Of a stretch of DNA of 64,000 nucleotides, positions 29,572 to 55,948 are shown piece after piece (position 1 is the first letter of the stretch; each line of letters starts with the position of its first letter). The stretch spans positions 19,654,001 to 19,718,000 of the forward strand of contig CP158635.1 of assembly GCA_050273025.1 (NCBI GenBank), in the 5' to 3' direction. The position numbers and the translations under genes were made by a program. This DNA comes from Cenococcum geophilum (Eukaryota). The notes beneath the pieces are model-generated. The model was not told the DNA's origin, searched no databases, and saw only the letters and a list, made by a program, of their open reading frames with translations.

Positions 29572-32500
29572 TGTTAGCGACTCAGTCAATCGAGGCACGA
29601 GCACGGCAAGAGGGACGCGCAAGCCTGTACAATTGGTAGTCTATAAACGAGGATCTAAAGCTAGAGAAAGGAAGGAGAAGAATAGCAGCGCCGCTTGATA
29701 TTTTATGCGGTCCTTAAGTCACGTGACCCGCGTCTACCATAATCTATGTCTGCTAAGATCCACCGTTTTCCACCAGCGCCGTAACATTACCCTCCCCCTC
29801 CGAAAAAGCCTGCCCTCAGGCTTTGTATATCCGTGTTATGTCCGTAGGGTATTCTTATCTTTATGCTTAGTAGGCAGCCTATCGTCTTCGCTATACCAGC
29901 ACTCCATCTACTTATTGAGGTACTTTAGGGGTCCGGGTTCGTTAGGGTATTGGTTGTGGAATTCTTTAAGCCTCTAGGGGCAGCCTATAAAGTTCCAGGC
30001 GGGGTACTAGGTTGGGTCTAGATCATAGCCTTTCTATTAGATACGGTATTGTAGCATTCCTTATACTAGTTTATAGGCTAGTATTTTATTAACTTCCTAT
30101 TCATTATCGCTATTAACTTAAATTAGTAGGGGAGGCTTATTCTTTTATCTAGGTAGTGGGTTATTTACAGCCTTTTGTAGCTTATCCGGCGAAAAGATAG
30201 AGTAAACCTTAATTAAGTCTAGGAGCTCAACCTTGTACGAGTTGCCTTCTTTATTAAGGATCTTATACGGTCCTACCATCTTATAATCTAGCTTACGGCT
30301 AGGCCGTTCTATCTTCTAGTTCTTTGTCGTAACCTAGACCCTATTATCTACAGTAAAGTCAGGCTCGCGCCTATGCTTATTTGCCTACTGTTCTATTAAT
30401 TTCTGGGCCTTTTCTAGGTTCTTACGGGCTACCGTCCAGGCTTCTTCTAGGCGTTTAGCGTATTGCTAGGCTTCCTTATAAGATAGTTTTTCGCGTACGG
30501 TCTGTGGGCCTTCCGGTCTATTCCAGTTAAAGCTAGTACGGAGTAAATATCCTATTTCTAGCTAAATAGGAGCAAACCCTGTGGAGTCATAGGGTAGGGT
30601 TACCTGGGCGTAGTCTATTAGGGGTAGTAGTTCGCCCCAGTTATCCTAAAAGTAGTTAACAAAGGGCCAGAGTCTCTAGTCCAGGTATTAATTTATAATC
30701 TCCGTCTAACCGTCTGTCTGGGGGTGGTATACTATAGAAAGCTTTAGCTTAATGCCGAGGATCCGAGTAAACTTATTCCAGAAGGCCGATATAAACTACG
30801 GCCCGTGGTCAGATATAATAGTATCTAGTGGTCCGTAAATTCGGTAGATATAATAGATGTATAGTCGGGCTACCTCCTTAGCATCAATATCCTTATAACA
30901 GGGGATTAAGAGCGGGCGCTTGCCAAAACGGTCAACTAGGATTATTACCATATTATATCCGTCACGGTCTGTAGGCAGCTTATAGAAGTCTATAGAGATA
31001 TGCTGCCAGGGGCGTTCTAGTATCGGGAGTGGCTTTAATAGTCCTAGAGTCTTATCTCGCGGAATTATAGACCTACGGCAGTCGTTACAGTTCCGTATAT
31101 AGCGGTTAATATCCATAACTATTTCGGGCTAGTAATATCGGTCACCAATAATTTTGCGGGTCTTATTCTTTCTAGGGTGGGCCGTAGAGACCTAGGCATG
31201 TGCTTTAATAATAAGCTAAGTCCGTAAGTTCTATTCCTCTACTACTACTAGCCGTTCCTAATGCTTAAGTAATCCATTTTCGAGGGACCATAGGCTGGTA
31301 ACGTTCTTTGCCTTTTTACGGTACTCCTGTAGAGAAAGGGCCGTACGGTTTATCTACAGTAATTCGTTAATTAAGTCAAGTCCTAAAGGGTCAATAGGAT
31401 ACATCTCGGCGCCTAAGGAGTCTGTACTTAGTTCTGCCTATATCTGGGGGTTAAAGTGCTCTGGTCGTAGTAGTGTCTAGGTCCATAATAAGATCTTCGC
31501 AGCCGTCTAGTTACCTAGGTCTTGTTTACGCCTTATAAGAGTATCCGCACGGTTCGTAGCGCCTAGTCTATATATAATTAAGAAGTTAAACTAAGATAGG
31601 ATATCCGCCCAGCGTGCCTACCGGGCCGTAAGGGCCTTGGTTGTTATAAAGTATTCTAGGGCCTTATAATTTAAAACTACCTTAATAGGCTTAGGGGTCC
31701 CCTTTAGCTATATACGCCAGTACTAAAAGCTAGAGATAATAGCCAGCATTTCTTTATTATGGATGTGGTAGTTTAGCTTAGCATCTATTATAGTCTTTAA
31801 ATAGTACGCAATAGGGTGCCATTCTCCGTCCGGTTGCTTCTGGGAAAAAATATCGGCTATCGCGCCGTCTAAGGCATTAGTTTTTAGCATTAAGGGCCGT
31901 TCTAGGTTAAAGTGGGCAAGTAGGGGAGCCGATACTAGCCGTTTTTTAAGCTCATTAAAGGCCTGTATATATATGGCGTCAAAACAGAAGGGCTGGTCTT
32001 TCCTAATAAGATGGTTAAGAGGCCGGGCGATCCTACTGTAGTTTTTAATAAAGCGTTAGTAGAAGTTACAGAAGCCTAAAAATAATTATACCCCCTTTAC
32101 GGTCCGTGGGGGTGCCTACTGGTTAATTATAGCCGTTTTCTCTAGGTTAGCCTTAACTCCGTCTATACTAATAATAAAACCTAAGTACTTTATACGCTTA
32201 ACACTAAATTCTAACTTCTTAATATTAGCCTGGAGGCCAGCCTTGCGGAGCCGTTATAGGACTTTATAGACGTGCTTTTTATATTTTAGCTTATTCTTAA
32301 AGTAAATTATAATATTATCTAGGTAGGCCGTATAGAAGTCGTTAAGGTAGTTAAAGAGTATATCGTTTATATACCGCTAGTACGTAGCTAGTCCGTTAGT
32401 CAGTTTAAAAGGAAGTACTTTACATTTATATATTCCGTAATAGGTCTAAAATATAGTAAGATTTTCTAATCTAGGGTTTATCCTAATTTAGTGAAAAGCC

Positions 32501-35489
32501 TAACGGATATTGAGCTTAGTAAAGATCTTAGCTCTACTTATTTGGGCTAGAGTCTCCTTAAGTAAGGGTAGTGGATAGCGGTCCTTACGGGTTATATTAT
32601 TAAGTTTACGGTAGTTAATACAGAAACGAAGTCCTCTATTTGGCTTTTTGGCAAAGAAAATAGGCGAGTTAAAAGGGGCTTGACTGGGCTTAATAAAGCC
32701 CTTATTTAGGTTATTAATAAGGTACTACTTTATAGCCTATAATTCGGCAGTAGACTGCTAACAAAGGGGGCTATAACTAAGGGTGTCTTCCTTATCTAGC
32801 TTAATCTTAATCTTATAGTCGTACGGTTGGTAAGGTAGGAGTATATTGGACGCTGCCTTAGAGAATATGTTTTTGAATTTCTAGTGTTAATAGGGTAGTT
32901 TCTATTCTACTAGCTCCTTATCCGTAAGCTTACTTTCCTATCCGCTAAGCTTGCTTTTCTTTTCCTTAATTATTTGATTAATTTTATATAAGCTAGTAGT
33001 AAGGTAACGGTATTAGGTTGGACTAAGTTCCGGTAGAATCCTACGGCGCTAATACAGCAGATATTAACTAGGGGAAGGTCTATAGGTTTCTTTACGGACT
33101 TTTATTAGGCCGTATTTTGCGGAATAGGGTTTATAGTCTTCCTTAGCTTACGTTTTATTTTCCGTAAGTTGTTCTTCTAGTCTATTAGTTTAGTATAGCA
33201 TCTAGTATTCCTAGCCTTCCTTTATAGCTATATAGGGCCTAAGTTCTCCACGGGGGACTTAGCTAGGTCACTACTAATTTCCTAGATTTTTAGTGCGGGT
33301 GGCGTAATATAGGTAGTCTAGGGGCGGTGTAGTATATAAATCCGTTACGGATTAAGCTGTACATCTTTCTTAAAGGCCTAGTCCCTACGTATAGTATCGG
33401 CCTAGTAAATAGTATTAATTTAGGGCCGTATAAGGTTCTTTATTATAATACTAATTTCTTTTATAAAGGAAGGGGTTAGGGGTAGGGATTTAGGCTAGAT
33501 AAGCCGTCTACTTCATACGTTAAGCTATAAGCCTAAATAGGCTAGCTATTTTCTTTTTAAGATTATATTATAGCTTCCTAGGTCTGTAATAAGAAAGGGG
33601 ATATTATACTGCCTTCGTCCATTAACACGGAGGTAGATCCGTAAGATAGTCGTAATAGGTAGTTCTATCTGTCCATTATACCCGCGAATAGGAACTGGTT
33701 TAGGCAGTTCTTTAAAAGGCGCATTAAAAAATTTAGCTAGCTTTATAGCGCACTGGGTATCTATTAAGGCAAAGGCATTTACTCTAGAGTTAGTTAAAGC
33801 GGAGGTTAAAACTTAATATCTATTGCGAAATAAAGTATAAGGGATAGTGCAGCTTCTTCTACTAACTAGCTGACTTAAATTAATATGTGATATATTAATT
33901 CCTTTTAACCCTAGAGAGGAGTTTTTCTCTAAAGTTCCTCTTTTTCTGGCTCTGTGCTATCCTCCTAAATTAATAGAACTTCGCCCGTTTTTACCTTTGT
34001 CTGGCAATCCTTTATAAAGTGGTCTTTTTGGCCGTATAAGAAGCAAGCTCCTTAATTGCTGAGGGCTTGTTTACGGGGGTTGTTATATATAGGCCAAGTG
34101 TACGCCAGACCCGTAGTAGGACTAGCTGTACGGCTAGCTGCTAAATTAATGGTAGGCTGTACAGCTAGTGCCGTAGGAGTTATAGATTGTGCTAGAGTGT
34201 TACGGGCCATTTGTATAGTGCTTATAGTTTGGTTTAGAGAGTTTCTAGCTTTATGCCGCTTAGCTTATACCTTAATTTAACGAAGGCCTTAGTTAATAGA
34301 TAGGCAGTGGTCCGTAAGTACCTTTAGTGTCTATATAGTAGTAAAAACTGGTAGTACGGCGCGCTGTAGGTCTAGGGTAAGCTTATTAAAGAGGTCTAGT
34401 ATTAGGTCTTTATAGGGAATTTGGGCTTGGCCGGCTAGGTGCAGAAAGCGGGTCTAAAAGGCTAAAAAGGTCTCCGTTGTCTTTATGTTAAGAGCTTTAT
34501 AATTAAGGCGGGCGTTCTGTATCTTAAAGGGGTCCTTATAGATGGAAGACAAGTAGTCGATCATCTCATCTCCAGAGAGGAAGGGATCTGCTAAGTCCTG
34601 GGCGTATCGCAGACGTAGGTGCGTCTGTGCGTCTCCGCCGATACGGCCGAAGACGTAGGCCATCTTAGCTTAAGTAGTGGGGAAGTGGTCCGTATTAACT
34701 TCGAGCTTATCCTGTAATTAAAGCTTCCAGTTATTAAATATAGGGTTAGTTCCGTCTGTAAGTAACGGGGGGTCTATAACCTTCGCGGACCGTAATAATG
34801 CTAATGCTGTGCGTTAGGCTAGGGCCTTAAGGACTATAGCAAGTCTCTAGGTATCTAATAACTCCTTGCTAGGTGTAGGGGTGTCTCTGGTTTTAAGCAG
34901 CTCTTAAAGCCGTTTAATTTCGGCATTGGCTGCTGCGAGCTCTTCCTGGGGGGTTAAGACGGCGACTGTTTTACTATTGGAGGTATTTGCGGGTCCTACA
35001 GCGGCTTTGCCAGCTGCTGTATTTCTTAGCATGGTGGTAGGGGTATTGGGTAATTTCCGGTGTTTATTTATTTTCTAGGGGTTCTGGTCCGTGCGTGTTC
35101 TATTCTTAGGTTTCGCGTTCTATTTGTGTTCTTTTGGTTCTTAGGTCTGTCCTGTCCTTGTGGTCCTAGTAATATCCTTAGGGTCCTGTTTTGTGTCCTT
35201 GTCCTGTTTGTGGTCTTATAGATAGATATATTTAAGTTCCTTTTTAGGAAGAAGAGTAGATAAGCTTTGGATAATGTTAGCGACTTAGTTAATCGAGGCA
35301 CGAGCACAGTAAGAGGGACGCGTAAGCCTGTACAATTGGTAGTCTATAAACGAGGATCCAAAGCTAGAGAAAGGAAGGAGAAGAATAGCAGCGCCACTTG
35401 ATATTTTATGCGGTCCTTAAGTCACGTAACCCGCGTCTACCATAATCCACGTCTGCTAAGATCTACCGTTTTCCACCAGCGCCGTAACA
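29572..35489 (-). mobile_element. Full-length Ty3/Gypsy chromovirus 1 (RIP-inactivated)
   Basis: 215-bp LTRs at 29572-29786 and 35275-35489 (TGTTA..TAACA); TSD ATTTT at 29567-29571 and 35490-35494; PPT next to 29787. Remnants of gag, protease (LTNSRVN), RT (AYLDNIII), RNaseH, integrase (HISIDF, SDHGP, YHPQTDG) and chromodomain (~29950-30110). Confidence 0.95.
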
Positions 35490-37329
35490 ATTTTAGAGTA
35501 ATAGTTATTGTACTTATCCTGGCTTACTAGTTAAGTAACCTTTTTATTTAATTTATTTATAATTTAATTGTACTTATTAAGTTCCTTATACTTATCTTAT
35601 AATAGCTTATTATATAATACTGCTTAAAGAGAGGTAATAGGCTTTTCTAATTCTTGGTATGTTTTCTAAAGCCGTTAGACCTTTAAAAGTATTATTTTTT
35701 TACTATTTCTTCTTTTAAAATGTCTTAATATACTTTATATAACGATTTAGGTAAAGAATAAGTGCAGTGGTGTAAAGAGGGGAGTTATCTATTCTCTGGT
35801 AGTACTTATTAAACTTCGCCTATATATTCTTTACTTAAAGTAAGAGAGCTTTATTTAATTTAAAGAGTGCCTATTATATAATATTAGCTTTAGCTTAAAT
35901 AAAGTACTTAAAAGAAGAGTTATATAAGAGAATTCTCTATATGTTTAATAAGTACATCTATTATAAAGAGTACTCGATTAAGTATTATATAATTCCCTTA
36001 TATCTCTAATATTGTACGGTAAAATAGCTTTAGAAAGGTATAAATTGTATAAAGAAGCTTTTAGTCTTATAGCGAGATATAATCCTCCTTAAGCGTATTA
36101 AAGTTGCTTTTAATATAGTTATTAATTCCTAACTTATACTTAAGTGAAACGCTTAGTATTTAATACTAGCTATTCTATCTTGTATAATTATTAAGTAGAA
36201 CTTATCTTCTAACTAAAGTCTTAAACTCCTTTATACAATTAGCTAAGGTATAGAAGTATATTATAATATTATAAAGCTTACTAAGTAGGCTTATTGCTTA
36301 GAAGGTATTACAGACGCTTTAAGTACAATATTACAACTACTAGAAGAAGAGTCGGAAGAAGCTAGTTAGTTAATTTAGGCATGGTCCAAGATAGAGCTAA
36401 TAGAACTATGTGACAAGAAATAGTAACTAAGGTCACGTGGGGTGATCTATATAATCTATGGGATCTATATAATCCGCAACAAAGTAGATAGAGCACACGT
36501 ACATTACGTACAAGAAGAATTTTATAGGAGTACGGTTGTGTATTTAAGGACCCTTAGTCCCTACCTAGATAGTTCCTTCCTTGTAGTAATTCTCAGAATA
36601 TAATTAGAGTTAATCTGTTAGGCAACCACTCCACTAGTTATTATTACGTTGTTAACTTTTGTACTTATATTTCCTACACACCTAGCCTAATAATAGGACC
36701 CATCGTAGTTCTTACTACAAGGTTCCGTTACACAATCACTACCTAGTTACAGTATCAATATAGAAAGTCGAATAACATGCCACCAAAAGCAGCCACTATA
36801 ATGCTATCGACGGCGGCAACTACTTCGAGGTTAGTTAACGACACTAGTATAGTAGACACTAACTTATAGCAACCTATAACGGTCGGACAACTATAAGAGA
36901 TAGTGGACTAGTTGACAGAAAATAATATAACGTTAGAAAATAGGATTAACGGGATAGGCGCAGCAAAGGTTAAGTTACTATCAATTAAAAGATACTTAGA
37001 AGAAAAATCAAAGCTTAAAGGATTCCTTATATAAATGCACTTTAAGGTAGTACAGGAAGGAGTAAAGCTGGTAACACCTATAGATTAAATAGCCTATGCA
37101 GGACTATTCTTAATAGGAAGAGTACTTAAATGGTTTAAGCCTTATTTTATAGAGATATAAGTAAACGGCATAACAACTACCAACTAAGAGGTACGGTTTA
37201 TGTTCTTAAGCTAGAATGGATTTATAGAACGGCTTACACAAATATTTAGAGACCTAGAGGCAATAACTACGGCGGAAAGAAAACTCTAAGACATTACGTA
37301 ATAAACCTTAGCAATTAAGTATACAATAC

Positions 37330-40300
37330 TGTAACCGACTACCGGTACTATGCCGAGACATAAGGCTGTAGCCTGGAAGGCTCCAAGACAGCATTGGCAC
37401 TACCTTCGTATATCTCGCATACCTCATATTATGGCTTAAATGAGTTAAAGATTAAGTTATAGACCCTACTGTTAGGGCTTTACTTTTGTGTATATATTTC
37501 ACCTAATTTCCATAGATTTATAATTAAGTCGTTTATTTAATTCTCCTATACTATAAAGCTTACAGTTATAAGCCCGGGTTGTACTACCTGCTAAGCAATT
37601 AATCTATTACCTTATTTAAGAAGTCACTACTTCTATTACCTTTGCAAGTGTCTTAAGCTTCTTTACCTATCAAACGAACGAACGGTTGACCCTAACTGAC
37701 GTACCCAACTGATGAACGAATTAATGAATTAAATTAAGAGTTTGGAACGTTAAAATAAGGTTTTTGCTAAGCTACTAATTGGACCCTGCCTAACCCCATA
37801 AATCCTAAAAATAACAACTATTAACGAATTAAAAGTTAACCTTATCCTTAACTAGCCATCCAATTGGATCCAATAGTTCTTTATTATCTAAGATACAGCT
37901 ATAACTAATGAGGTATAGAAGTATATCGACCTATCCATAAAAGACGAGCTTCTAAAGCTAGAACTACCGTATCAACCCGTATTAGCAGACATACTTCCTA
38001 ATGCCATATTAATAGCTTAACTGGACCAAATTAAGCTCACTGCCTATAACTAGCTCTACGCCGAATATAAGGATAATCTACGCGTACACGAGAAGCAAAA
38101 ATAGGCTATAAACGATATTAGCAACTACATTGTTTGCACCACATCGGTAGCCTACCTTCCACTCATTAACGGCCTCAACACGGTACATGAACGGCTTTAA
38201 GCATTAAAGACTGCACTTGCCCCTACCTCCTCAGGTTAAAAACACAAGGTCCTTAATTAATACACGGCTTTAAAATCCTACAATAAAAAGCAGAGTATTA
38301 AAAAATGGTTAAATAACTAGCGGAACGTCTACAAGCTTGTGGAGCAATTAGAGCTTTTAGACGTTTAGGGATTTAGAGCATACTATAATTTCGTTTAAGT
38401 AATTAAGCCAATCTCTTCTAGCTTTGTAGGAGCTCTAGAAGTAGACCTTATTTATAAGGAATAGAAGGGCGAAAATATACTATCTATTATTAAACTAATT
38501 AAGGAATTTAAGGAGCACTACCGTATGCAGCAAGTGGTATCCTCTGCTACCACTACCAATAGCTCTGCATTTGCAACCCTTTAAAATAATTTAAATTTTA
38601 ATTTAGATTCCAATAGTAATTCTAATTCCAACGGCAATTCTAATTCCAATTTAAGATGGAATAAGAAATGTATATACGGCCTCGTACATCGATTTAACGA
38701 CTGCTACTATATTGCTAAGAAGAAGCGCCTATAAGGATAGAAACCAAACCTAGACGTCCAGAAGGAAGTAGAAGAAAAGATCTTATCTACGCCTTGGATT
38801 AAACGTATAGTTAATTATATCCAAAAAGGAGGACAAGAAGTAAAAAAGGACGCAGAATCTATAATTAATTTTGACTCCAAAACCCCACCTTCTATAACAC
38901 CGACTAGCTATGCTACCGTGTTTAGTACTGGTTAAATTCCATTTAAACTCCAGAATACCTGGATACTTAACCCTAGTGTAGATACCTATGTCTATAATAA
39001 TAAAGAAGACTTTACCTTCTTATACCTAGTAGTAGAAGACGACTACCTAATTGCTGGCGGAAATTTTAAAAAGATTTAAGCTTATGGAATAGTAACCATT
39101 ACTGTTAATACACCTACTGGGAAGTTAAAAATGAAGCTATCCCACGTAGCACTAGCACCTACCTTTTTTATAAATATCGTAGCATTTTTAAGAGCTACTA
39201 ATAACGACATCCATTTCGACTTAGGACGAAACTTACTATACCGTCTAGCAACTGGCGAAATAGTATGCTATGCGAGATAACTAGGGGGCTACTGGGCACT
39301 AATACACAGACAGCCTACCCTAGATTTAATAACTCAATCGACCTTCTTAACAAGAAGACATCAACTAAGCAGAATGGCCCGTAAACTAGTCGGAGCTACA
39401 GCTACAAAATGGCATAAAATACTTGGCCATGTAGGACCTAACGCTATTAAGCAGCTTCCTAAGCACGTTAATGGCGTAGAGCTTAAAGAGCTAATTAACG
39501 AACGAGCACCGCTTAAAGTTGAATATGAAGTTTGCTTATTAGCAAAGCACACGCAGTAGATCTCTTAAAGACGAGAATATGAATATCTAGCTACTCGACC
39601 ATTCGAACGGCTCGCGTTTGATATTATTAACCTCGGAGTACCTAGATACAACGGCGATAGATATATTATGTATTTCTATTACACGTATTCCAAATTTAAC
39701 TTTGTGTTTACCTCTAAGAATAAGGACAAAGCTACTGTCCTACCTACCATCCGAAAGACCCACCGTTTGATTAAAATACGTTTCCACCAAGACGTCGTCT
39801 TCTTCTGGAGCGATGACGAACGAGCTTTTGGACAGACAGGAGACACCTTACAGACATGGTGCGCAGACGAAGGCATTACTTTTGAATGCCGAGCCCCGTA
39901 TACAGAAGAACAAAATGGCGGAGCTGAACGATCTGGACGAACCCTCATGGAACGATCAAGGGCTATGCAGCTGGAAGCATCCTTACCCCCGTCTCTAGGA
40001 CCAGAAGCCTTCCTTGCTGCTGGCTACGCACTCAACCGAACCCCAAATGAGCAACTAGGATGGAAAACTCCGTACGAGATCGCCTACGGCAAGACGCCAT
40101 CACTTACCCATATGCACGTATATGGCTGCAAGACCTATACGCTGGACAAACGAGTCAAAAAGGGAGATAAGCTAGGTCCCCGTGCATTGATTGGACACCT
40201 AGTCGGCTACGATTCGACCAATATCTATCGAATCTGGATTCCAAGTCTCTACAAAGTCATCCGAACCAGAGACGTTATATTTGACGAGACCTTGTTCTAT

Positions 40301-42875
40301 GACCCCAAAGGTCAAGACATCGACTACCTGCTAAGGGAAGCATTAGAAGACACCCTCCAGACAATTAGTCTACCAGAACCTCTCCACGAGGATGAATCTA
40401 AGGATGAATCTATCCTATATAGACCTACCTCGAATGCAGATTAAACGACTACACCTGAATCAAACGATTCGGCAGAGCCTCGTATGAAGGATACTGAGCA
40501 GTTACCGACTCCTAGTAGAACGGTATCTCCAGATCTACTAGAAATAAATACTACACCGGGAGGACTTTAAGACGATATCTTGGATATAATTAAAGCAACC
40601 CCTACCTAGTTAAGCTCCCTAGAACCATCTAATAGAGCAATTAATATAGCTCTACGAGCTAACGAAGTCTCGGCCAAACCTTCTGCCGACCTTATCCTAC
40701 TAGAAGGATCTAAACGAATTCGACGTTAAGCACATGCGATAGCACTAGCCAATCTATCTACCCTATTTGGTTACTACGCTGGATTTGCTATAGGATTAGT
40801 AAAGGACATTAGCCGAACTAGATCCTTATCCTTATCTCTATATTGGGACAATCTTCCTCCTAAACCAAAGAACCTTAAAGAACTAAGAAAGTATCCTTTA
40901 ACTACTGGCTTTTAAAAGGCTATGGAAAAAGAATACAACGACCTAAAACGCCGAGGGACATTTAAGACTGTACCAAAGGCAGAAGTATGCAACGAGCAGA
41001 TCCTTCTACTAAAATGGGTCTTTAAATATAAGCTTAACAGCGACGGCTACCTATAAAAGCTTAAAGCTTGACTGTGCGTCCGCGGAGACCTGTAGATCAC
41101 CGAAGAAGAGACCTATGCAGCAACCCTAGCTGCTCGAATATTCCGTGCCCTTATGGCTATAGCAGCCGCATTCAATTTGGAAATTCGACAGTATGACGCC
41201 GTAAACGTATTTATAAATGCCAAGCTTAGTAAACTAGTATACTGCTACTGCCCAGAAGGATTTAATTAAAATGGATATATCCTAGAGCTACTCATGGCGC
41301 TATACGGACTAAAAATATCACCGCTACTGTAGTATAAAGAGCTCACTAGTACCCTAGCTAAATTTGGATTGAAACCTATCCTAGGTATTAACTGCCTATT
41401 TACCGATGGACGACTTATTGTCTTCTTCTACGTAGACGATATTGCCGTTCTATTTGCCAAAAAGGACCTTTAAAGACTCGAAGAATTTGAAGCCAAATTA
41501 CTATAACGATACGAGATCCGTGCACTAGGAGACCTACAGTAGTTCCTAGGAATTTGAATTGAACGAGATCGAGTAAGTAGAAAGCTCTGGCTCTGCCAAG
41601 ACTCCTATATCGAAAAGATAGCTAATAGATTTAATATTTAACTAGGCAGATTTCCTAAGTCACTACTTCCTGCCGAAGAACTGATTCCGTCCGATTAATA
41701 GACGAACCCTTAAAGGACCCTAGCCTACTAGTAACGAGTAGGGTCTCTTACACACCTTACCGTATTTAGAAGACCTAATATTATAAAGACGCATTCCAAG
41801 CTAGCTGAATTCCTCACCAATCCAAATTAGGGATACCTTGACGCAGCAAACCAAGCTATAGCCTACTGCCTTGGAATAAAATCTACAGCTATTGAATACT
41901 TAGGGGAAGCTTTTAGAGCACACGTCTACTTTAGAAACCCCAAAGGAGAAGACGTTACCTTTTACGGAGTATCTGACGCAGCATTTGCGGACCATAAAGA
42001 GACCAGACGGAGCTCTTAAGGATATCTTTTTATCCTATTCGGAGGCCTAATTGATTGGAAAGCAACCCTACAGCGATCTGTTACTCGTTCGACTACCGAA
42101 GCAGAGCTTCTCTCCCTATCTACTGCTGCCGTTGAGATTATCTGGTGGCAACGATTCTTTGAGGCAATCGGCTTTAATTTAGAACGCGAATTTACCCTGC
42201 TATGCGACAATATGTAGACTGTACGCCTTCTTAAATAGGATACACCAAAACTCGACACCAAGCTTCGACATATTGACGTCCATTAGCACTAGCTTAGACA
42301 GGAAATCTAAGACAAAAAGATTGACGTACGATGGGTTCCTATAGACAAAATGCCTGCCGACGGCCTTATAAAAATCTTACCTTGTTAAAAGCACGAAGCA
42401 TGGATAAAGCAGTTAAATTTGGTAGATATTCGACATTAGATTACTACTGCATTATCTAGCAACTAGTATCATTGCAATATTTGCAATATCCGCAATATCC
42501 GCGATATTCGCAATATCAGTCACGGTTACCCCATCCTTTTGCTACTCCCAAATTGTATCTAAATTTCCTATTTTGGTATAGCCCCTACCTTTATTTTTAT
42601 TTTCTATAGCTTTAACTACACCGTTAAATCTGGGGGGGTGTGTAACCGACTACCGGTACTGTGCCGAGATATAAGGCTGTAGCCTAGAAGGCTCCAAGAC
42701 AGCATTGGCACTACCTTCGTATATCTCGTATACCTCGTATTATGGCTTAAATGAGTCAAAGATTAAGTTATAGACCCTACTGTTAGGGCTCTACTTTTGT
42801 GTATATATTTCACCTGATTTCCATAGATTTATAATTAAGTCGTTTACTTAATTCTCCTATACTGCAAAGCTTACA
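37330..42875 (+). mobile_element. Full-length Ty1/Copia retrotransposon nested in the Gypsy 2 gag
   Basis: 235-bp LTRs at 37330-37564 and 42641-42875 (TGTAAC..CTTACA); TSD AATAC at 37325-37329 and 42876-42880; PBS GTTATAAGCCC; PPT GGGGGGGTG. Integrase ORF 39668-40444 (EEQNGGAER) precedes RT (FYVDDI ~41425-41442) and RNaseH (SDAAFAD), the Copia domain order. Confidence 0.96.
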
Positions 42876-45800: not shown

Positions 45801-48679
45801 AAGAGATACTATAAGTATAGCAAGAAACTATGGTCACTAGAAAGTAAAAAGCTATTAGCGTATATAGTATGGGACTATAAGATAGAATTGGAATTAGAAA
45901 CAAGTCTAAGGTTTTTTTTAATCTATAAGCTTACTAAAGAAGAAGGTAGAGTACTAAAAGAGTTTATTTAGGAAAACTTATGAAAGGGATATATTAGACT
46001 ATCGCAGTTATTAGCGGGTTATCCAGTACTATTTATACTAAAGAAGAATAGCAAACTAAGGCTATATATTAACTATAGATAGTTAAATAGCATTACTAGG
46101 AAGGATAGGTATCCTTTACCCTTAATTAGCGAAATCTAAGATAGGATAGGTAATGCGCAAATCTTTATAAAGATAGATCTAAGATAGGCGTACCATTAGA
46201 TTAGAATTAAGGAAGGCGATAAATAGAAGGCAGCCTTTAGGTTAAAGGAAGGACTATATAAACTATTAGTTATATAATTTAGGCTTATAAACGCACTAGT
46301 AACATTCTAAAAGCGTATTAACAATATATTAGGAGAACACTTAGATAAATTTATTATAGTATATCTTAACAATATTATTATCTACTTAATAACTAAGGAA
46401 GAATATGGAGAATATGTTAAATGGGTCTTAAAGAGACTATAAGAAGAATAGATGCTAGTAGTAATTAAAAAATACAAGTTCTTTACTAGGAAGACCAATT
46501 TTATTAGATTTATTATTAAACTAGGCCAACTTAGTATAGATCTAAAGAAGATTAAGGCTATAGTGAATTAGTAAGAACTAGAGAATGTTATACAATTAAG
46601 ATCGTTTCTAGGGTTTTGCAATTACTGTAGAAGGTTTATAGCGCAATAGTTAAAGGATATTAAGCTATTTACGCGACTAATAAGGAAAGAAGAACTATAG
46701 GTATAGGGAGAGGAATAGTGAGAGCTCTTTAAGAAAGTTAAGGAGTTATTTACCTAGGAGCCAGTTCTTAAAATCTATTAACTAGGACTAGAAATGATTA
46801 TAGAGACGGATGCATTAGACTATATACTAGGGGCGTGCTTTATGCAAAAATACTAAGATAAATAGCACCTAGTGGTATACTATAGTCGGAAGATAACACT
46901 ACTAGAGTTAAACTATAACATCTATAATAAGGAGTTATTAGGTATAGTTATAGTATTAAAGAAATAGAGAGCATTCTTATAAGGCATAGAAGAACTATTT
47001 ATAGTTAAGACGGATTATAAGAACCTAATAGGATTCCTAATAATAAAGGAACTTAACTAAAGATAGGTTAGATAGGTAGAGATGCTTATAGAATACTATT
47101 TCAAGATTTAGCATACTAAGGGTACAGATAATATAAGGGCAGACGCTCTAAGTTATAAGGCTGAACTATAAAACGATAAAAAGCTATTAGGGGCTTTACT
47201 GCGAAAAGATATAGACGGATTGATTAGGTATAATTATCCAAAAATTATAGCAACTTAGGAAAATAATGAGTTAGAAAAAGTCTACGAGATACTAGAAAGC
47301 TTTTAGGTATAAAGAATTCTAAAAGCATAGCTAGAAGATCTATAGACGGATATATATAAGAACTGAGAAGTAAAGTATATCCTAAGAAGTATAGTAGAGC
47401 AGTTTATAGAGGACTTCTATAAGGGACTAACTTAAGGACATAATAGAGCTACGGGCTTAGTGTTAAGACTTTAAGAGGAGTACATTATTAACGGAATCTA
47501 GAGGATAGCTAGGAAGGTCACTAAGGAGTATCTAGATTGCTAAAGGAATAAACTAATAAGACATAAGCCATATAGAGGGCTATAACCTATTAAAATACCA
47601 GAGAGACTATGGGAGGTCATATTATAGGACTTTATTATTAAGTTGCCAAGATTAAGAGATCCTATTACCGGATAAGATTATAACGTAATCTTAGTAATAG
47701 TAGACAAGCTTATAAAGTAGGAATACTTTATAGCATATACGGAAGAAATCTTAGCGGAGGATATCGCTAGAATTTATATTAAAGAAGTATTTATAAGATA
47801 TAGAGCACTAAGCAAGATTATATTAAATAGAGATTTAAGATTCATAGTAGTATTCTAAGAGGTATTCTTAGCGGAGTAAGGAGTTAGAGCAGCAACTTTT
47901 ACCGTATATTATCTATAGATAGACGGTTAAACGGAAAGATTAAATTAGATACTAAAGCAGTATCTAAGATATTATATTAATTACGTACAGAATAATTGGG
48001 TATCGCTATTACTAGTTATATAGTTTGCATATAATATAACACCTTAAGAAGGAATAGGCATATTACTATTTAAGGTAAATTATAGATATAAGCCAAGAAT
48101 ATTATTATTACTACAGCAAGTAAAGAAAATAAGTAGCACAGCTAAAGAAAGAATAAAGACGTTAATAAATCTTTATATAGACTTTATAAAATTAGTGAAG
48201 AAAGTACAAGAGAGAATAAAAAGGTACTATAACGCTAAGAGATTTAAGGGACTAGATCTTAAGGAGGGAGATAAAGTATGGCTACTATATAAAAATTTTA
48301 AGAGTTAACAACTAAGCAAGAAGTTAGACTACGTTAGACTAGGACCTTTTAAAATTACGTAGAGAATTTCACTAGTTACGTTTAAGTTAAACCTACTAGC
48401 TAGAATAAAGATCTACCCTATATAGCACATTATAATGCTAGAGCCAGTATATAGGAATATTAAGCTACTAGTTTATAAAGCAGATACATATAGAGGATAA
48501 GAAGAAGACAAATAGTAAGTTTTAAAGATCGTTAGTTATAAGAATATTAACAACAAAATATAGTATAAGGTTAAGTAGATAGGCTATAATAAGACTACCT
48601 AGGAACTACTAAAGAATTTAAAAAACGCTATAGGAAAGGTATAGAAGTATCGGAAGAGATTAGGTTAGGCAGTATTAAA

Positions 48680-49300
48680 AAAAAAAATTTATAAAAGAAT
48701 AAGTCACCTAAGGGGGACCTAGGAAGAGCAGTTGCCGAACTACTTAAATCTATTTCCTTCTCTATTAGAGGAGAATCCGTTCTTTTATTACTAAGTTCCT
48801 ACAAACCTTATTTTATAAGTTTTTACTCTTTAGAACAGACCTTTTTACAAACCTTCTTAAGACGGATCAACCAAGCAGACGCAGTAAGACGGGAATTAAG
48901 GGCTCTTTGCTAAGCTTTAGCAGCCTTATATTCCGCGTTATAAGAACAGCGTAGTTCCGCCAGAGTAATAGACAGTTTATTATCTAGCCGCGTAGCAGCA
49001 GATTAAATATGAGACCCTAAGATAAATTAATTAAGAAACTAGACGACTATTAAGAGTAATAGGTTATATATATTTAGCATTAGAGACGGAGCGAACGTCA
49101 TAGGACAAATAAATATTTGCTTTAGTGCACTCTAAGTAAGAGAACGGTTATCGCAAAGATGGGTTCGCCAGCGCAATATAAACTAACCCCTCTTTTAAAC
49201 AGCAAGAATATAGAGACGGCATAATCTCACTAAGAGATAATATTATAGTAATAGTGCGAGTATAACGGGCAGTTAAAGAAGAAGAAATTGCTTTAGGTAT
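48680..49300 (-). pseudogene. Antisense, spliced Zn2Cys6-like/coiled-coil accessory ORF within Gypsy 2 (RIP-mutated)
   Basis: Reads IPKAISSS..EIMPSLYSCCLKEGLVYIALANPSLR*PFSYLECTKANIYLSYDVRSVSNAK, then an intron at 49071-49017, then WSHI*SAATRLDNKLS..RLKKVCKKVCSKE*KLIK*GL*EL. Reverting TAT/TAC to TGT/TGC gives C-x2-C-x6-C-x13-C-x2-C-x8-C. The 3' end is approximate. Confidence 0.68.
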
Positions 49301-52300
49301 AATAAGTAATAATATTAACCAAATTAATTAGACGGATATTATACCTCTAGTAAATAACTTAGAGATATTTTAAATCTTTAAGAACGAAGATAAAGAGGAG
49401 GGAGATAGTGTTACGGACGCTTTAAGTATAATGTTATAACTACTAGGAGAAGAGTCGGAAGAAGCTAGTTAGTTAATTTAGGCATAGTCTAAGATGGAGC
49501 TAATAGAACTATGTGACGAGGAATGGTAACTAAGGTTATATGGAGTGATCTGTATAATCTATAGGATCTATATAATCCGCGATAGAGTAAATAGAGTATA
49601 CGTACATTATGTATAAGAAGAATTTCATAGGAGTACGGTTATATATTTAAGGACCCTTAATCCCTACCTAGATAGTTCCTTCCTTATAGTGATTCTTAGA
49701 ATATAATTAGAGTTAATCTATTAGGCAACCACTCCACCAGTTATTATTACGTTGTTAACTTTTATACTTGCATTTCCTATACACCTAGCCTAATAATAGG
49801 ACCCATTATAGTTCTTGCTATAAGGTTCCGTTACAGAAGGCCTAGTTCTACTTAATCTCTTTTTTATAACTTCGCTCCTTTCTACTTACGTTATTTCTTT
49901 TATATAACTTAATAGCCTTAAGTTTAAGAGTATCTTTAGAGAGAAAGGCCTGAATGGTAAGATTAATAGTATGCCCCTAGCAGCGGATACGTTGTTAGAT
50001 AGGATTCTAGGTAATATCCTTATTATTAGTAAGATATTTATGGATCGTATAATAAAGAGTATTATTTATTATAGAATTATCTGTAATAATAGCTTTAAGC
50101 TTTTATATAATCCTATACTCCTCTAAAACTAGGAGAAGAATATTCTATTATTTAGCTCTATTATAACTAGGCACCGTATAAAGGGTAAAAAGAGCTTTTT
50201 TCTGGGTTTTCTGGCTATTAATAAAGTAGGCGCAAACTGTAAGAAGAAGGTAGTTATTTAGAGACGTCTAGATATTAATAAAAAGATAAATACTTATTAA
50301 TGTTAATTAAACTTATCTTTATATAATGTTTTTCTATAACTAAAAGGAATGGGTAATTATTTGAGAAATTTCTCTATACGTTGTTGTTATTAAATTAGAC
50401 GACTTTGGGTTAAGAGCCTAATAGAAGATATAGAACTCTCCCTATTCTATAATTTAGAATAGAAGGTTTTATATAATAACTAAGTTAATAAGAGCTTGCT
50501 TAATAACTTCCTTATTTAGAACCTTTATAAGAATTATAGAATTAACTTTATCTGTTCTAAATTTTAATACTATTTATACCTAAAGTTCCTAAAGCTTTTT
50601 AAATGCTTACTCCTTTATATAAGGCTCTTTAAAGTTAACGGAGATTGCGTGGTCTTTTATAAGGTGTCTTTTTATATTTATAGTTAATAGTGCTGAGTAA
50701 CTCTTGCACTAATTGCAGTATATAAGCCTTCGGTTCTTTTTATCGTATATTAGCTTGTTCTTATACGGTAGGCAAGTAAATTTATAGACTTAAGATTAAA
50801 GCTAAGCCTGTTGTGTGCTAGAGCTCTTAATTAAGCTAGGAGTATTTTTAAGAAGAGATAAATCCGCTTCTAAAGCCATGTTTGGTGTAATATTGCAGTA
50901 GAAAAGTAGTAAATTTAATGAAAGAAAAATTTGCGGGGATGCCAAGAGAATATCACGATACTTTGATCGATACGAGATATCGTATCGATCGTTGATCGTT
51001 GATCGTATTGAGATAAGATTAGATTTTGCCCTACCCTGATCCCGGGGGGTACAGATGATAGGCAGCAAGGCTGGAATGGATCTCAGATGTCAACCCCGTA
51101 GCTTATTTGCTTGGATTTCCCGCCTTTTTGAGCCTTCCACATTCTCTTCTTCTCAATGCTAGTCACCTCATCCCATCTTAATGGCTGATCCTATTTCCGT
51201 GCTTGGGTTGGCTATTAGCGTCGGTGTCTCACCAGGAGCTCTAAATTCTGGCTGCTACCCATCTTCGGTACCTAAGTATAACCCATCAGCAAGTCCTAGC
51301 AACCCTGGGGCGTCACATACGTCGAATTTAGGGATCTATACGCCCTATTTCGATTCAACACAAGGCTATTCGATGGAAGATCCCTATGGCCACCAACCTT
51401 CGTCTTCTTATCAGCCCGATCTAAATCCCGCCTTAGAATCGCCTCCAACTAAAAAACTCAAAACTGAGGAAAGCTACACGAAAAAGGATTTCTCGCACAG
51501 TATGTCGACCCGGCAATGATTTCAGCCTGGTGAAGGAATAGCCCGCGAAGTCATTACGGCAGATATACAACGAAATCTCGGCCCTGATGCACTGGTGCGA
51601 CCAGGCGAAGGAACAGCGAATATGAAGTAGGTTTTTCCTTATTTTGAATCTGGGCTTGTACACAGACTAATAATGAAAAGGGCCTCCAGGGATACCGGCT
51701 TACTGCATATCGATGTCTCACTAGCGTAAGAGCGTCATCACCCTCTCTAACAAGCCCAGCGATTAACCAATTCTTGTACAGCAAATGGTTCAAGACTTAA
51801 GATTAGATTCTCGGCGGTGGCGAGCTGAAGTTCAAGGTAGGCGAAGCCATAGTTCGATCGCTTGTGATTTGAAACTGACAAGGAGTTAGTTGCATATCAG
51901 GATTCAAGGACTCATCGATCGAGACAGTATTATGGCCCAACAGCACCAGCACTTCCCCACGCGGAGTCAACTCAGGCGCAGCCGACCTATCCCTTTGTGT
52001 GGCAGAACGGACTTTTCGTATTAGGCGCTTTGGGCGTTCCTGCCTGGGTTAGCATGCTACAGGCACCCTAGCTAGCGTAATTTTATTAGCAAGCCTTACC
52101 AAAACGCGTCAGTATTGCGATGCCGATAAAGTGCTGTAGAAGGCTACTACTAAAAACACCTATATATATATTTTAAGGAAGTTAGGCAAAAAGCCGTAAT
52201 ATATAACGTTATAACTATAGGTTTCTACCCTTCCTCTATTAATCAGCTACTAATTATATAGGAAAATCCTCTATTAGAGTCCTCCCTTAAATTACTACTA

Positions 52301-52690: not shown

Positions 52691-52938
52691 ATAAGGGAGG
52701 ACGTGCTATATACGTTAAATGAGGTGTATTAAATGCTACAAGTGGTTAAACGGTTCAACCAGCGGTTATTCGATATCCAAGCGTCAATGAGGCGCCAGCG
52801 CCCTTGCTGCCGAGCAACCGCACTGACCAGAGGCTTCAACACCAAGCTCTATACGGTATAAAGCCTCTAGATTGGCTTATGAGGCGTACATATACGAAAA
52901 GTCCATGAAAAACTTGCCACACGAAGGGATTCCTACCC

Positions 52939-53049
52939 GCAGCCAAGCTACACAAACGTGCAGCCAAGCTACACATACGAGCAGCCAAGCTACACATACG
53001 AGCAGCCAAGCTACACATACGAGCAGCCAAGCTACACATGTGCAGCCAA
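52939..53049 (+). repeat. 21-bp minisatellite, ~5 copies (QPSYTYE in one frame)
   Basis: gcagccaagctacacatacga units start at 52939, 52960, 52981, 53002 and 53023. Confidence 0.92.
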
Positions 53050-53204: not shown

Positions 53205-54743
53205 CAAGGGGGTACCACGTACGGGTCGGACGCCCCCACTGTCAAAAACCGTGCGCAATAGAGAGTATCTACACCTGATCCAACCATACAATTTCTCACC
53301 GAGATCACCACTTAGTATGGCCTCCATTTGCAGCAATTACAGCCTCGCAGCGATCGCGCATCTAATCTATATACTTTTTGAAGTCATTCAACTCTAATTT
53401 CTCCCATTCCTCCTTAATATATTATCGCACTTCCACCTCTGTTTTAGGAAATCGTTTACCCACTTAATACTTTAATAGTCGCCAAATATTCTCAATCGGA
53501 TTTAAATCGGGTGAATTAGCAGGCCACCTTATCCTCTATACGTCGTTGCACTCGTGCAGAGCTTTCGTGGCGTTAGCCATATAGGAAGGTGCTCCGTCCT
53601 CCATTAAGATTACGTTTCCCCTGCCTATATATTACTCTATGTAAGCTTTGCAGTGTGTAGGTATTGAACGAGCAACTTAATTGTAAATCTATGGAAATCA
53701 AGTGGTATAAATACATAAAAGTAGACCGAGTCGGTGAGCGAGTCAAGGGCTAGGCAACTGAAACAAGGTGGTACGCTAGTGAGACAAATGACGTTTTGAC
53801 ATGGTACCGGTAGTCGGTTACACTCTACCTCTCTTTTATATGCGTAGATTGTAGGAACTATGTGCTCTCTATATACGTCTCCTGAGATCTTACCCCATTT
53901 CTTTTTAAATACCACCAATTTGCCCTTTCCGTAGAGAGAGATTGTTCTGTGTATTATCTAAGCACTATAGCCACGGAACTTAGGAAAGCAACAGCTGCTT
54001 AAATACTTCTCCTCCGGCTGTTAAGTTACGTATACCTTACCAAAGCCACCTGTTATAAAGGAGGCTTTATCTGTCTATAAAATCCGTGCCTATATCTAAT
54101 TGGGCCAGTTATGGTGTACTAAGGCCTACGCAAGACGATCCTGCTTATATGCCTCTATAAGAAGTGGCTTCTCTATTGCAACACGACGGTGATATTACTC
54201 CTTTTTAAATGCAGTAATAAGTGTACGTCTGTAAGCTTGTACTCCCTCTAATTTAGCAACCTCTTTTAATAGTATATAACGGTAGTATACATTAATCGTG
54301 GCTCGCGTAATTAAACGTTTTTAAATGGGAGTATTAAGTATACAAGGCCTGCCTATAGGCTTTTAAGGAGTCTCGCTGTATAATATAATAGTAGAGCAAA
54401 CAGTTATATATAGAAGTCGTAAGGAGGAAGCAATTTAAGTGTAGTTTTAAGATCCAAAGCGATGCTAAGAAAAGATATGGCAGCGTTCGCGGTAGGTAAG
54501 ATATGTATTTGGTATTCGATTTGGGTCGACATTTTGACGTCGCGGAGGGTGGTGGCCACGGTTGGCGCGAACAAGAGCAGGCATTATGCTTAGAACGAGT
54601 ATACAAGGATAAGATGAAGAGTTTTGCATACAAATAAGGTAGAAATCTCTTTTGTGGTGGTGTGAGAATTTTCAACTGCAGATACTCCGTATTGCGCACC
54701 GACACTGACAGGGGGGGCGTTACCCGTTCGTGGTACCCCCTTG
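53205..54743 (-). mobile_element. Tc1/mariner DNA transposon (RIP-inactivated)
   Basis: TIRs CAAGGGGGTACCACG.. / ..CGTGGTACCCCCTTG with TA duplications at 53203-53204 and 54744-54745. Minus-strand motifs TDKASF (~54058-54075), LMEDGAPSY (~53581-53607) and WPANSPDLNPIENIW (~53483-53527). Confidence 0.93.
53640..53822 (-). mobile_element. Copia solo LTR (183 bp) inserted in the Tc1 element
   Basis: The reverse complement starts TGTAACCGACTACCGGTAC and ends CTGCAAAGCTTACA, as in the LTR at 42641-42875. TSD CTCTA at 53635-53639 and 53823-53827. Confidence 0.92.
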
Positions 54744-54745
54744 TA

Positions 54746-55582
54746 GTCTACTACCCTTTGCGAAAGTATTGCGAAAATCAAAATTAAGCGAGCCTCCCTC
54801 CCGCAGACGTTCGTTTTATAATAATGCTTATACAACCACTAAAAATAAGTCTTATTTTATAAAATTAGTAAATAGAACTATAAAATAGATACTAATTTAT
54901 AATTTTAAATATATAGCAGCTTAGTAAATAGTGTGGTTGTAGAAATTTAGGTGGTAAAGAGTCGGGCTAAGTATACCCTCTCTATCAAAACAATATACCC
55001 CCTATAGCCCCACTAATACAGCTCTATATTTTATAAATAAAGTTATATTTTATAGCCCTATGTTAGGGCTATAAAATAAGCCCTTATTTATATAAATTGG
55101 ACTAATATTAGTGGAACTATGTGGAGTATTTTAGAATGGCCGCAAAACTTAAAATGAGGCTCTGCGCTGACTAACCTGACCCATCTACCCTAAAAATAAG
55201 CACCCCCCATAACTCTACTAAAACAGCCCTAAATTATACAAATAAGGGCTTATTTTATAGCCCTAATATAGGGCTATAAAATATAACTCTATTTATAAAA
55301 TATAGAGCTGTATTAGTGGGGCTATAGGGGGTATATTGTTTTAATAGAGAGGGTATACTTAGCCCGACTCTCTACCACCTAAATTTCCACAACTACACTA
55401 CTTGCTAAGCTGCCATATGTTTAGGGTTACGGGGCAGTATCTATTTTATAGTTTTATTTACTAATTTTATAAAATAAGACTTATTTTTGGTTGTTGTAAA
55501 GGTATTATTGTAAAACGAACGTCTGCGGGGGGAGGCTCGCTTAATTTTGATTTTCGCAATACTTTTGCAAAGGGTAGTAGAC
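54746..55582. mobile_element. Foldback element/MITE with ~350-bp inverted arms
   Basis: 54746-~55097 is the reverse complement of ~55232-55582 (gtctactaccctttgcgaaagtattgcgaaaatcaaaattaagcgagcc.. / ..ggctcgcttaattttgattttcgcaatacttttgcaaagggtagtagac); spacer ~135 bp. Confidence 0.9.
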
Positions 55583-55948
55583 CAAAAAAAAAGGCCGAGC
55601 CCACAGTGTCGGAGCGGCCGAGACCCTCCTGCACTTTCATAGTCCCGGAACGCCTGTTATGTGCACTCCTGCGTGGATTGTTGGCTACCTCGAAGTATAA
55701 GCCCTAATTCAGGCAGGTAAGCATTACTGGAAGCAGACTCATACCAGAATACTAGGACTAATCCATAGATGCTATAACGGCTAATGCTCTTACGCTAAAT
55801 GCTCCTTCTGTCAGTTTTATGTCAAGATTCTTCGTAATCAACAAGGTTTTAGAATACAGTACATTATTCACCCACAAGTTAATGATGAGTGTCCAGTACA
55901 ACATATTATCGTCCTGTTGTTCCACTCAATGAATCTTGTTCACAGCTT

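Follow-up and report, generated by a model that had tools for sequence, protein, structure and literature searches.

Fungal LTR retrotransposons are, to our knowledge, treated as elements that carry gag and pol only. Outside fungi, HBZ of HTLV-1, a spliced gene that begins in the 3' LTR, controls transcription of the sense strand, and in the centromeric CRM chromoviruses of plants the frame of integrase extends into the 3' LTR and takes the place of the chromodomain. Within fungi, the gene brtn of Boty-like elements was reportedly described in Botrytis cinerea and Sclerotinia by Zhao et al. 2011 (Virology 417:248). The passages of PMC8365987, PMC7264820 and PMC5987419 that cite brtn place it as an antisense gene between pol and the 3' LTR of Boty-like Ty3/gypsy elements and assign it no fold or function; it is the sole published fungal antisense gene that was found. 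Antisense frames of plants, the aORFs-3R (Grande gene23, RIRE2 and Retand), are treated in part of PMC7264820. In the passages of PMC8232023 that concern them, REP9-1 and REP9-2 are DUF3716 proteins of a class II transposon of Zymoseptoria tritici, and one of them affects sporulation. The words zinc, antisense and intron do not occur in the accessible text of the fungal LTR element survey PMC3248453, and listings of openly accessible literature showed for fungi no paper on a zinc-cluster antisense gene or on a pol tail of the kind described below.

The locus analysed here carries an antisense gene in the same position. Given that brtn of Boty occupies this position, the gene is less new than the original prediction implied; the position is known, and it is the anatomy of the gene that is new.

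The host element and its antisense gene

The window (the whole stretch of 64,000 nucleotides that was analysed) holds a RIP-mutated Ty3/gypsy chromovirus with LTRs at 36306-36732 and 49409-49835 and a GAAGG target duplication. Its gag starts at about 36788 and its pol ends in an SH3 domain and a chromodomain. The LTRs with their target duplication, the polypurine tract, the RH-INT order and the chromodomain identify it as a chromovirus, and in the unmutated relative L099 the Pfam matches to RT_RNaseH, Integrase_H2C2, SH3_Tf2-1 and Chromo all have E <= 7e-9. RIP was called because the TpA/ApT ratio of the element is 1.45-1.8 and 43 of the 44 differences between its LTRs are transitions, and these marks indicate that the host is a RIP-bearing fungus. 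Across 59 copies of the window family, the RIP-like transitions strike CpG, CpC and CpT besides CpA, which is a broad context. The genome contains many copies of the element (3185 first-look candidates; the 40 that were scored are all full length at 87-100%) and of the antisense gene family (3068 first-look candidates).

The antisense gene lies on the minus strand between the chromodomain and the 3' LTR, from 49300 or 49222 to 48628. The features of the region are the following:

36306..36732, plus strand: 5' LTR (427 bp), GAAGG at 36301-36305
48520..48660, plus strand: chromodomain at the integrase end, approximate, from tblastn of the window (PF00385 at E 1.1e-10 in the unmutated relative L099)
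48661..49529, plus strand: pol frame continued for about 290 codons across the antisense gene and the polypurine tract, with its stop at 49527-49529 inside the 3' LTR
48628..49016, minus strand: coding exon 2, a charged Ala/Leu/Glu/Arg-rich helix and a low-complexity tail, stop at 48630-48628
49017..49071, minus strand: antisense intron 2, of 55 nt and in phase 1, with donor AT in this copy, skipped in RNA contigs of runs X1, X3 and X10 on a sister copy
49072..49300, minus strand: coding exon 1, an N-terminal helix and the six-Cys cluster with spacing 2-6-13-2-8
49220..49222, minus strand: second start site ATG, short isoform, four residues before Cys 1 (ATG in 11 of 59 copies)
49291..49344, minus strand: antisense intron 1, 54 nt, GT..AG, holding the first start, skipped in X3 and X10 on the sister copy
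49298..49300, minus strand: first start site, long isoform, ATA in this copy (ATG in 2 of 59 copies)
49345..49432, minus strand: leader exon, probably non-coding, 5' end approximate, from contigs X3 and X10
49394..49408, plus strand: polypurine tract, 5' edge approximate, from sequence (same tract upstream in 78 of 80 metagenome loci)
49409..49835, plus strand: 3' LTR (427 bp), in which the antisense promoter probably lies, GAAGG at 49836-49840
49547..49577, plus strand: short tandem motif in U3 directly after the pol-frame stop, candidate regulatory site

Several other repeats were observed in the window. The gag is interrupted by a second, unrelated LTR element (37330-42875; LTRs matching over 235 nt, flanked by an AATAC duplication). 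A gypsy-like element on the minus strand at 29572-35489 has a pol that is 32% identical, and a tblastn search of it for the antisense gene gave no match. Nested long inverted repeats at 54741-55587, with arms of 331 nt at 88%, resemble foldback or MITE-type elements, and a 21-nt tandem repeat at 52934-53039 lies within an open frame of 131 codons.

The claim that the stretch between the chromodomain and the polypurine tract is an antisense gene and not a plain UTR is upheld by spliced RNA, by selection and by a conserved position. The six Cys sites lie on the minus strand at 49210, 49201, 49180, 49138, 49129 and 49102, with the proposed spacing of 2-6-13-2-8. In the window copy only sites 2 and 5 hold Cys, which agrees with the earlier statement that four of the six were reconstructed; in the natural copy L034 (G000:C7) all six are observed. 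In 59 distinct copies the codons at these sites are TGY or TAY only, with Cys at sites 1-6 in 14, 42, 8, 16, 47 and 17 copies, a set that is biased because four copies were picked up with a pattern in which Cys 1-3 are required and roughly half were retrieved through their similarity to one of these four. Among the first 30 copies, Cys stands at sites 1-6 in 2, 20, 3, 3, 23 and 8, with Tyr in the remainder. The motif search for Cys 1-3 found 4 copies and its control found 0.

L034 also has the GT donor expected at the equivalent of 49071, within GTACGC and followed by a branch-like motif and by a TTAG acceptor 55 nt on. It is the only one of the 59 copies with GT at the donor of intron 2, the other 58 having AT, and the acceptor is AG in 56. 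For intron 1, the donor is GT in 58 copies and the acceptor AAAG in 57. Each copy has 2 to 11 in-frame stops, so the open ancestral frame that was expected is found in none of the 59; exon 1 is open in L099. The window copy of the antisense gene, with six in-frame stops, is RIP-killed.

The limits of the frame required revision. The start given as 49300 is an ATG in two copies and has to be qualified, since in the window it reads ATA and lies inside the 54-nt intron, with a second start at 49222. At the other end, the frame does not stop at 48680, as had been assumed, and runs on to 48630-48628. Met-Pro begins 169 of 192 database relatives, both start sites counted. A coding leader exon was considered and is unlikely, as it has no ATG in any frame in the 59 copies and its phase is not kept in L099. 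Among 30 copies, the poly-A run at 48678-48688, which belongs to exon 2 and to the pol tail, is one base shorter in seven and two bases shorter in one, and one copy has an extra base near 48694. Locus L137 (1249-1275) carries a natural deletion of most of intron 2 that fuses exons 1 and 2 in one frame (P0006).

Of 24 RNA runs listed, 20 contain at least half of the words of the L034 stretch, and four were aligned to 9.9 kb around L034; the runs were picked for containing this stretch. Three of them, X1, X3 and X10, are assembled metatranscriptomes with three study codes, possibly from one campaign. Their contigs have 0 mismatches to L034 and skip exactly the proposed 55-nt phase-1 intron with GT..AG borders opposite to pol, at depths of 10.8, 13.1 and 4.0. 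In X3 and X10 the 54-nt GT..AG intron (49344-49291 in the window) is also skipped, which removes the first start; the X1 contig keeps the 3' part of intron 1 and its donor. Intron 1 (L035 1654-1709) is in this way out in two RNA sets and kept in a third, which could be a condition-dependent choice of isoform, at the low depth available.

By record lengths, the spliced contigs on L034 start within the 3' LTR, at about 24 nt from its edge, and extend 58-85 nt beyond the stop. These ends are consistent with a promoter in the 3' LTR, in keeping with the proposed antisense promoter in or near the LTR, with the reservation that contig ends are no proof of a start site and that contigs show neither strand nor level. 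The raw-read run X21 (12% read) gave no reads on the main splice junction, so that the strand of the transcript is read from the GT..AG splice polarity alone; the antisense splicing that had been predicted is observed in contigs. Pieces over inner pol in the L034 region are short and mismatched, and the antisense RNA therefore reads as a discrete transcript, the sister copy L034 having an antisense transcript of its own. L034 is the only copy shown to be transcribed, and it cannot make the protein because two stops interrupt its frame and both of its start sites read ATA.

Selection, relatives and the nature of the product

Given that RIP makes transitions, transversions were taken as the record of older change. 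Third positions account for 29 of the 42 transversion columns of the antisense frame within the family (binomial p 2e-6, with columns that are not independent), and the LTR control gives 9/8/8 by position. In exon 2, the first 70 codons have 25 such columns, 18 of them at third positions. Across 88 loci of several families, the transversions at positions 1/2/3 are 9/2/20 in the Cys region and 4/2/11 in the 15 codons that precede the second start. On crossing the intron, the third-position signal changes phase in the way expected from splicing. This distribution of transversions shows that the six-Cys antisense protein evolved under selection, and the protein is presumably translated.

The exon 1 search gave 75 representatives at E <= 0.001, and a profile of 42 exon 1 representatives matched 837 database proteins. 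In 192 fetched proteins the six columns hold C or Y, save for three residues and some gaps. Two divergent relatives led to 32 own-genome loci of other families, in which exon 1 is 36-70% identical to that of L034, and in 30 of these an integrase-chromodomain lies downstream of the antisense gene on the opposite strand. Positional conservation, expected from the original prediction, extends to metagenomes: among the best 80 of 525 matches, most of them from few samples, opposite-strand pol lies downstream in 46, with 29 loci too short and 5 without it. All six Cys are kept in 11 of 78 metagenome loci, the polypurine tract is upstream in 78 of 80 and the GT donor of intron 2 is present in 23 of 80. 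Lying on the opposite strand between pol and the LTR in most copies and families, the gene is of the same kind as brtn and the aORFs-3R. L099 has no RIP signature (GC 0.50, TpA/ApT 0.68), and its exon 1 is open with six Cys; it has several frameshifts, possibly from errors of assembly, and one of these falls in exon 2. Among longer proteins, word-index searches turned up neither a name nor an annotated relative of full length, and the ten database proteins looked up are all unnamed singletons. The ESM Atlas gave, as leads only, clusters of Ascomycota hypothetical proteins under 0.9, one with DUF3716 in 28% of its members.

The predicted protein has about 205 aa from the first start and about 180 aa from the second. 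It is laid out as an N-terminal helix, the Cys cluster, some 70 charged helical residues and a low-complexity tail, and the charged helical exon 2 originally described, rich in Ala, Leu, Glu and Arg, is recovered. The Gal4-type pattern is C-x2-C-x6-C-x5..12-C-x2-C-x6..8-C followed by a long helix, with a basic residue in the recognition helix. Loop 3 has 13 residues here, one above the 5-12 of the pattern, and the window family has Gly where the basic residue is wanted. The commonest Pfam match is Zn_clus (PF00172; 14 of 56 members, best E 0.0017) and the second is DUF3716 (PF12511; 5 of 56, best E 0.0038). The printed Zn_clus scores of 11-17 bits lie under the 21-bit cut-off and the DUF3716 score of 13.4 bits in L099 lies under the 22-bit cut-off, so that membership of either family as defined by Pfam is not supported.

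The AlphaFold models are of low confidence (pLDDT 51.8 and 53.7), with pLDDT near 75 in the N-terminal helix only, and a fold search with the second, likewise low-confidence, returned no PDB chain at Z >= 2. A sequence search of the PDB returned C2H2 fingers that match on a C-x2-C fragment only and were rejected, with no Gal4-type chain among the matches, and a profile search of the PDB returned nothing. The protein is called zinc-cluster-like because it resembles a Gal4-type cluster and coil yet fails Pfam membership. The Gal4-type Zn2Cys6 assignment put forward earlier is a candidate only: the six Cys are present and Zn_clus is the commonest match, with scores under the Pfam cut-off. Judged from its sequence, the antisense product may be an element-encoded zinc-cluster-like regulator, a reading that we consider evenly poised.

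It is also possible, at appreciably less than an even chance, that the accessory protein is real and is no LTR regulator, and would instead act as a zinc-binding adaptor against host silencing (RNAi, heterochromatin, RIP) or for particle assembly or nuclear import. Six Cys so spaced and then a long helix make up the layout of Gal4-type proteins, which argues against an adaptor, as does the fact that Zn_clus matches more members than any other family. Nonetheless, the fit to Zn_clus is weak, the second match is to DUF3716 and the recognition-helix basic residue is absent in the window family. An adaptor would also be in line with the DUF3716 genes of the Zymoseptoria DNA transposon, one of which alters host sporulation according to the relevant passages of PMC8232023.

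The pol frame on the opposite strand

The antisense gene is overlapped on the plus strand by the pol frame, which in the window runs from the chromodomain to the stop at 49527-49529 with no frameshift. This overlap and the upstream 54-nt intron were both missed in the earlier reading. It is pol whose frame has its wobble positions in common with those of exon 1; an independent ORF on the sense strand was dropped as a candidate since it is in the same frame as pol, and it is read as the continuation of pol.

Comparison of copies and loci shows that the pol frame is conserved through the antisense gene, and we consider that the pol tail is probably real. The contrary case, in which the antisense gene is real and the pol tail an accident, open by wobble-sharing and kept at 3n+1 through few ancestral indels, seems rather unlikely. 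Such an accident would be in line with the exon 1 overlap, which is uninformative, being open in 56-84% of controls, and with the 55-nt introns, inside which the pol frame has no third-position bias (8/8/8). It is also true that related loci are not independent and that openness of the tail was examined in a single unmutated element, L099, with an indel in the overlap. The wobble test of the pol frame in U3 (28/20/26) is uninformative.

What an accident does not readily give is the regularity of the lengths. Intron 2 was located on the DNA regardless of frame (7 of 114 were not located), and its length is 3n+1 in 106 of 107 loci; 12 of 13 distinct lengths are 3n+1, among them all seven (55 to 133) that occur more than once, and two singleton lengths may be miscalls. 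The distance from the junction to the LTR is 3n in 109 of 111 loci. The terminal motif of the pol tail is in register in 71 of 72 loci, which likewise speaks against an accident, and the chromodomain is in the pol frame in 59 of 64. Over 298 columns of the 59 copies, the pol frame has two fixed stops and the other frames 12 and 5. In L099, the pol frame has no stop over the 196 and 102 codons flanking the indel, versus 4-12 in the other frames, and the exon 2 overlap has 0 stops versus about 3 expected, an outcome reached in 119 of 5000 codon shuffles and 135 of 5000 synonymous resamplings. The openness of the tail may matter more than its residues.

Two further observations concern this region. 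The introns of 115-133 nt (L104, L109 and relatives) carry an insertion of 60-78 nt that causes no frameshift in the pol frame. Tandem repeats in U3 also follow the pol-frame stop in L099 (636-699), and their sequence is unrelated to that of the window family.

Proposed mechanism and comparison with known systems

It is very unlikely that the working product is the antisense RNA, through dsRNA or transcriptional interference, with the frame as a relic or side effect: the transcribed copy L034 is not translatable to full length, and the relevant part of PMC7264820 discusses, for genes of this sort, regulation by antisense RNA, but the codon-position bias and the fixed Cys across families that are 40-70% identical show selection on the protein. 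That conservation is confined to the sense-strand pol tail, which the antisense Cys frame would simply mirror, is hardly credible and largely refuted, given that, although the pol frame is in frame throughout and has wobble positions in common with exon 1, exon 1 varies least at position 2 of the antisense frame and not of the pol frame, the third-position signal changes phase at the intron, and spliced antisense RNA exists.

The best explanation remains an accessory regulator gene together with a pol tail in a fungal chromovirus lineage, and we think it about equally probable that it is right in full or that it fails in some part. Such a lineage carries the accessory gene on the strand opposite gag-pol. 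The gene is transcribed, probably from the 3' LTR, and spliced, as seen for the sister copy L034, and its introns would survive because the genomic RNA that is copied is presumably the other strand. Translation of the mRNA would give a protein of some 180-205 aa, in which six Cys are conserved and a long helix is charged. Removal or retention of intron 1, both of which are seen in RNA, would give the short or the long N-terminus if both starts are used. The Cys cluster would most likely bind two Zn ions in the Gal4-type manner, and the long helix would dimerise the protein. In the nucleus, the protein would act on its own LTR or on chromatin and so set the transcription of the element. The same DNA is also kept in frame on the sense strand, where it extends pol at its C-terminus as far as a stop in the LTR. 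The role of this extension might be that of a disordered acidic integrase tail, or to spare the genomic RNA a long 3' UTR. The tandem motifs in U3 are a candidate target of the antisense protein and nothing more.

A stronger form of this explanation, which we put forward tentatively and consider doubtful, is that both strands of the same 870 bases code, one for the pol tail and the other for an alternatively spliced zinc-cluster regulator that is expressed from the 3' LTR and binds its own U3 repeats. If this is true, the fungal retroelement would have an HBZ-like feedback gene, and the length of an intron would be fixed by a protein of the other strand. The pol tail, if real, would change the annotation of such elements and be one of the rare instances in eukaryotes of long coding on two strands. 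With a candidate domain, splice sites exact in RNA, a pair of isoforms and U3 motifs as a candidate target, the role of the antisense accessory gene becomes testable.

Among known systems, brtn is alike in being an extra gene of a fungal gypsy element, antisense to gag-pol between pol and the 3' LTR. It differs, as far as the passages citing it go, in that these describe no Cys cluster, intron or overlap with pol, the comparison being one of descriptions only. The plant aORFs-3R, in the part of the source that treats them, and HBZ of HTLV-1 are likewise accessory genes that lie antisense at the 3' end and have a promoter of their own; their hosts and folds are different, and the likeness is one of layout, no relation in sequence being expected. 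Gal4-type factors (PF00172) share six Cys spaced 2-6-n-2-8 near the N-terminus, a Pro before Cys 4 and a long helix, whereas here n is 13, the Pfam score is below the cut-off, and the protein is of about 200 aa, has no middle homology region and is borne by a retrotransposon. The DUF3716 proteins REP9-1 and REP9-2 are, as described in those passages, also small fungal proteins carried by a transposon, and the antisense protein matches their family weakly; theirs is a DNA transposon and not an LTR element, and the match is below the cut-off. Finally, the CRM elements likewise have a pol frame that ends inside the 3' LTR, but in the element described here this end comes after a chromodomain and the frame overlaps an antisense gene.
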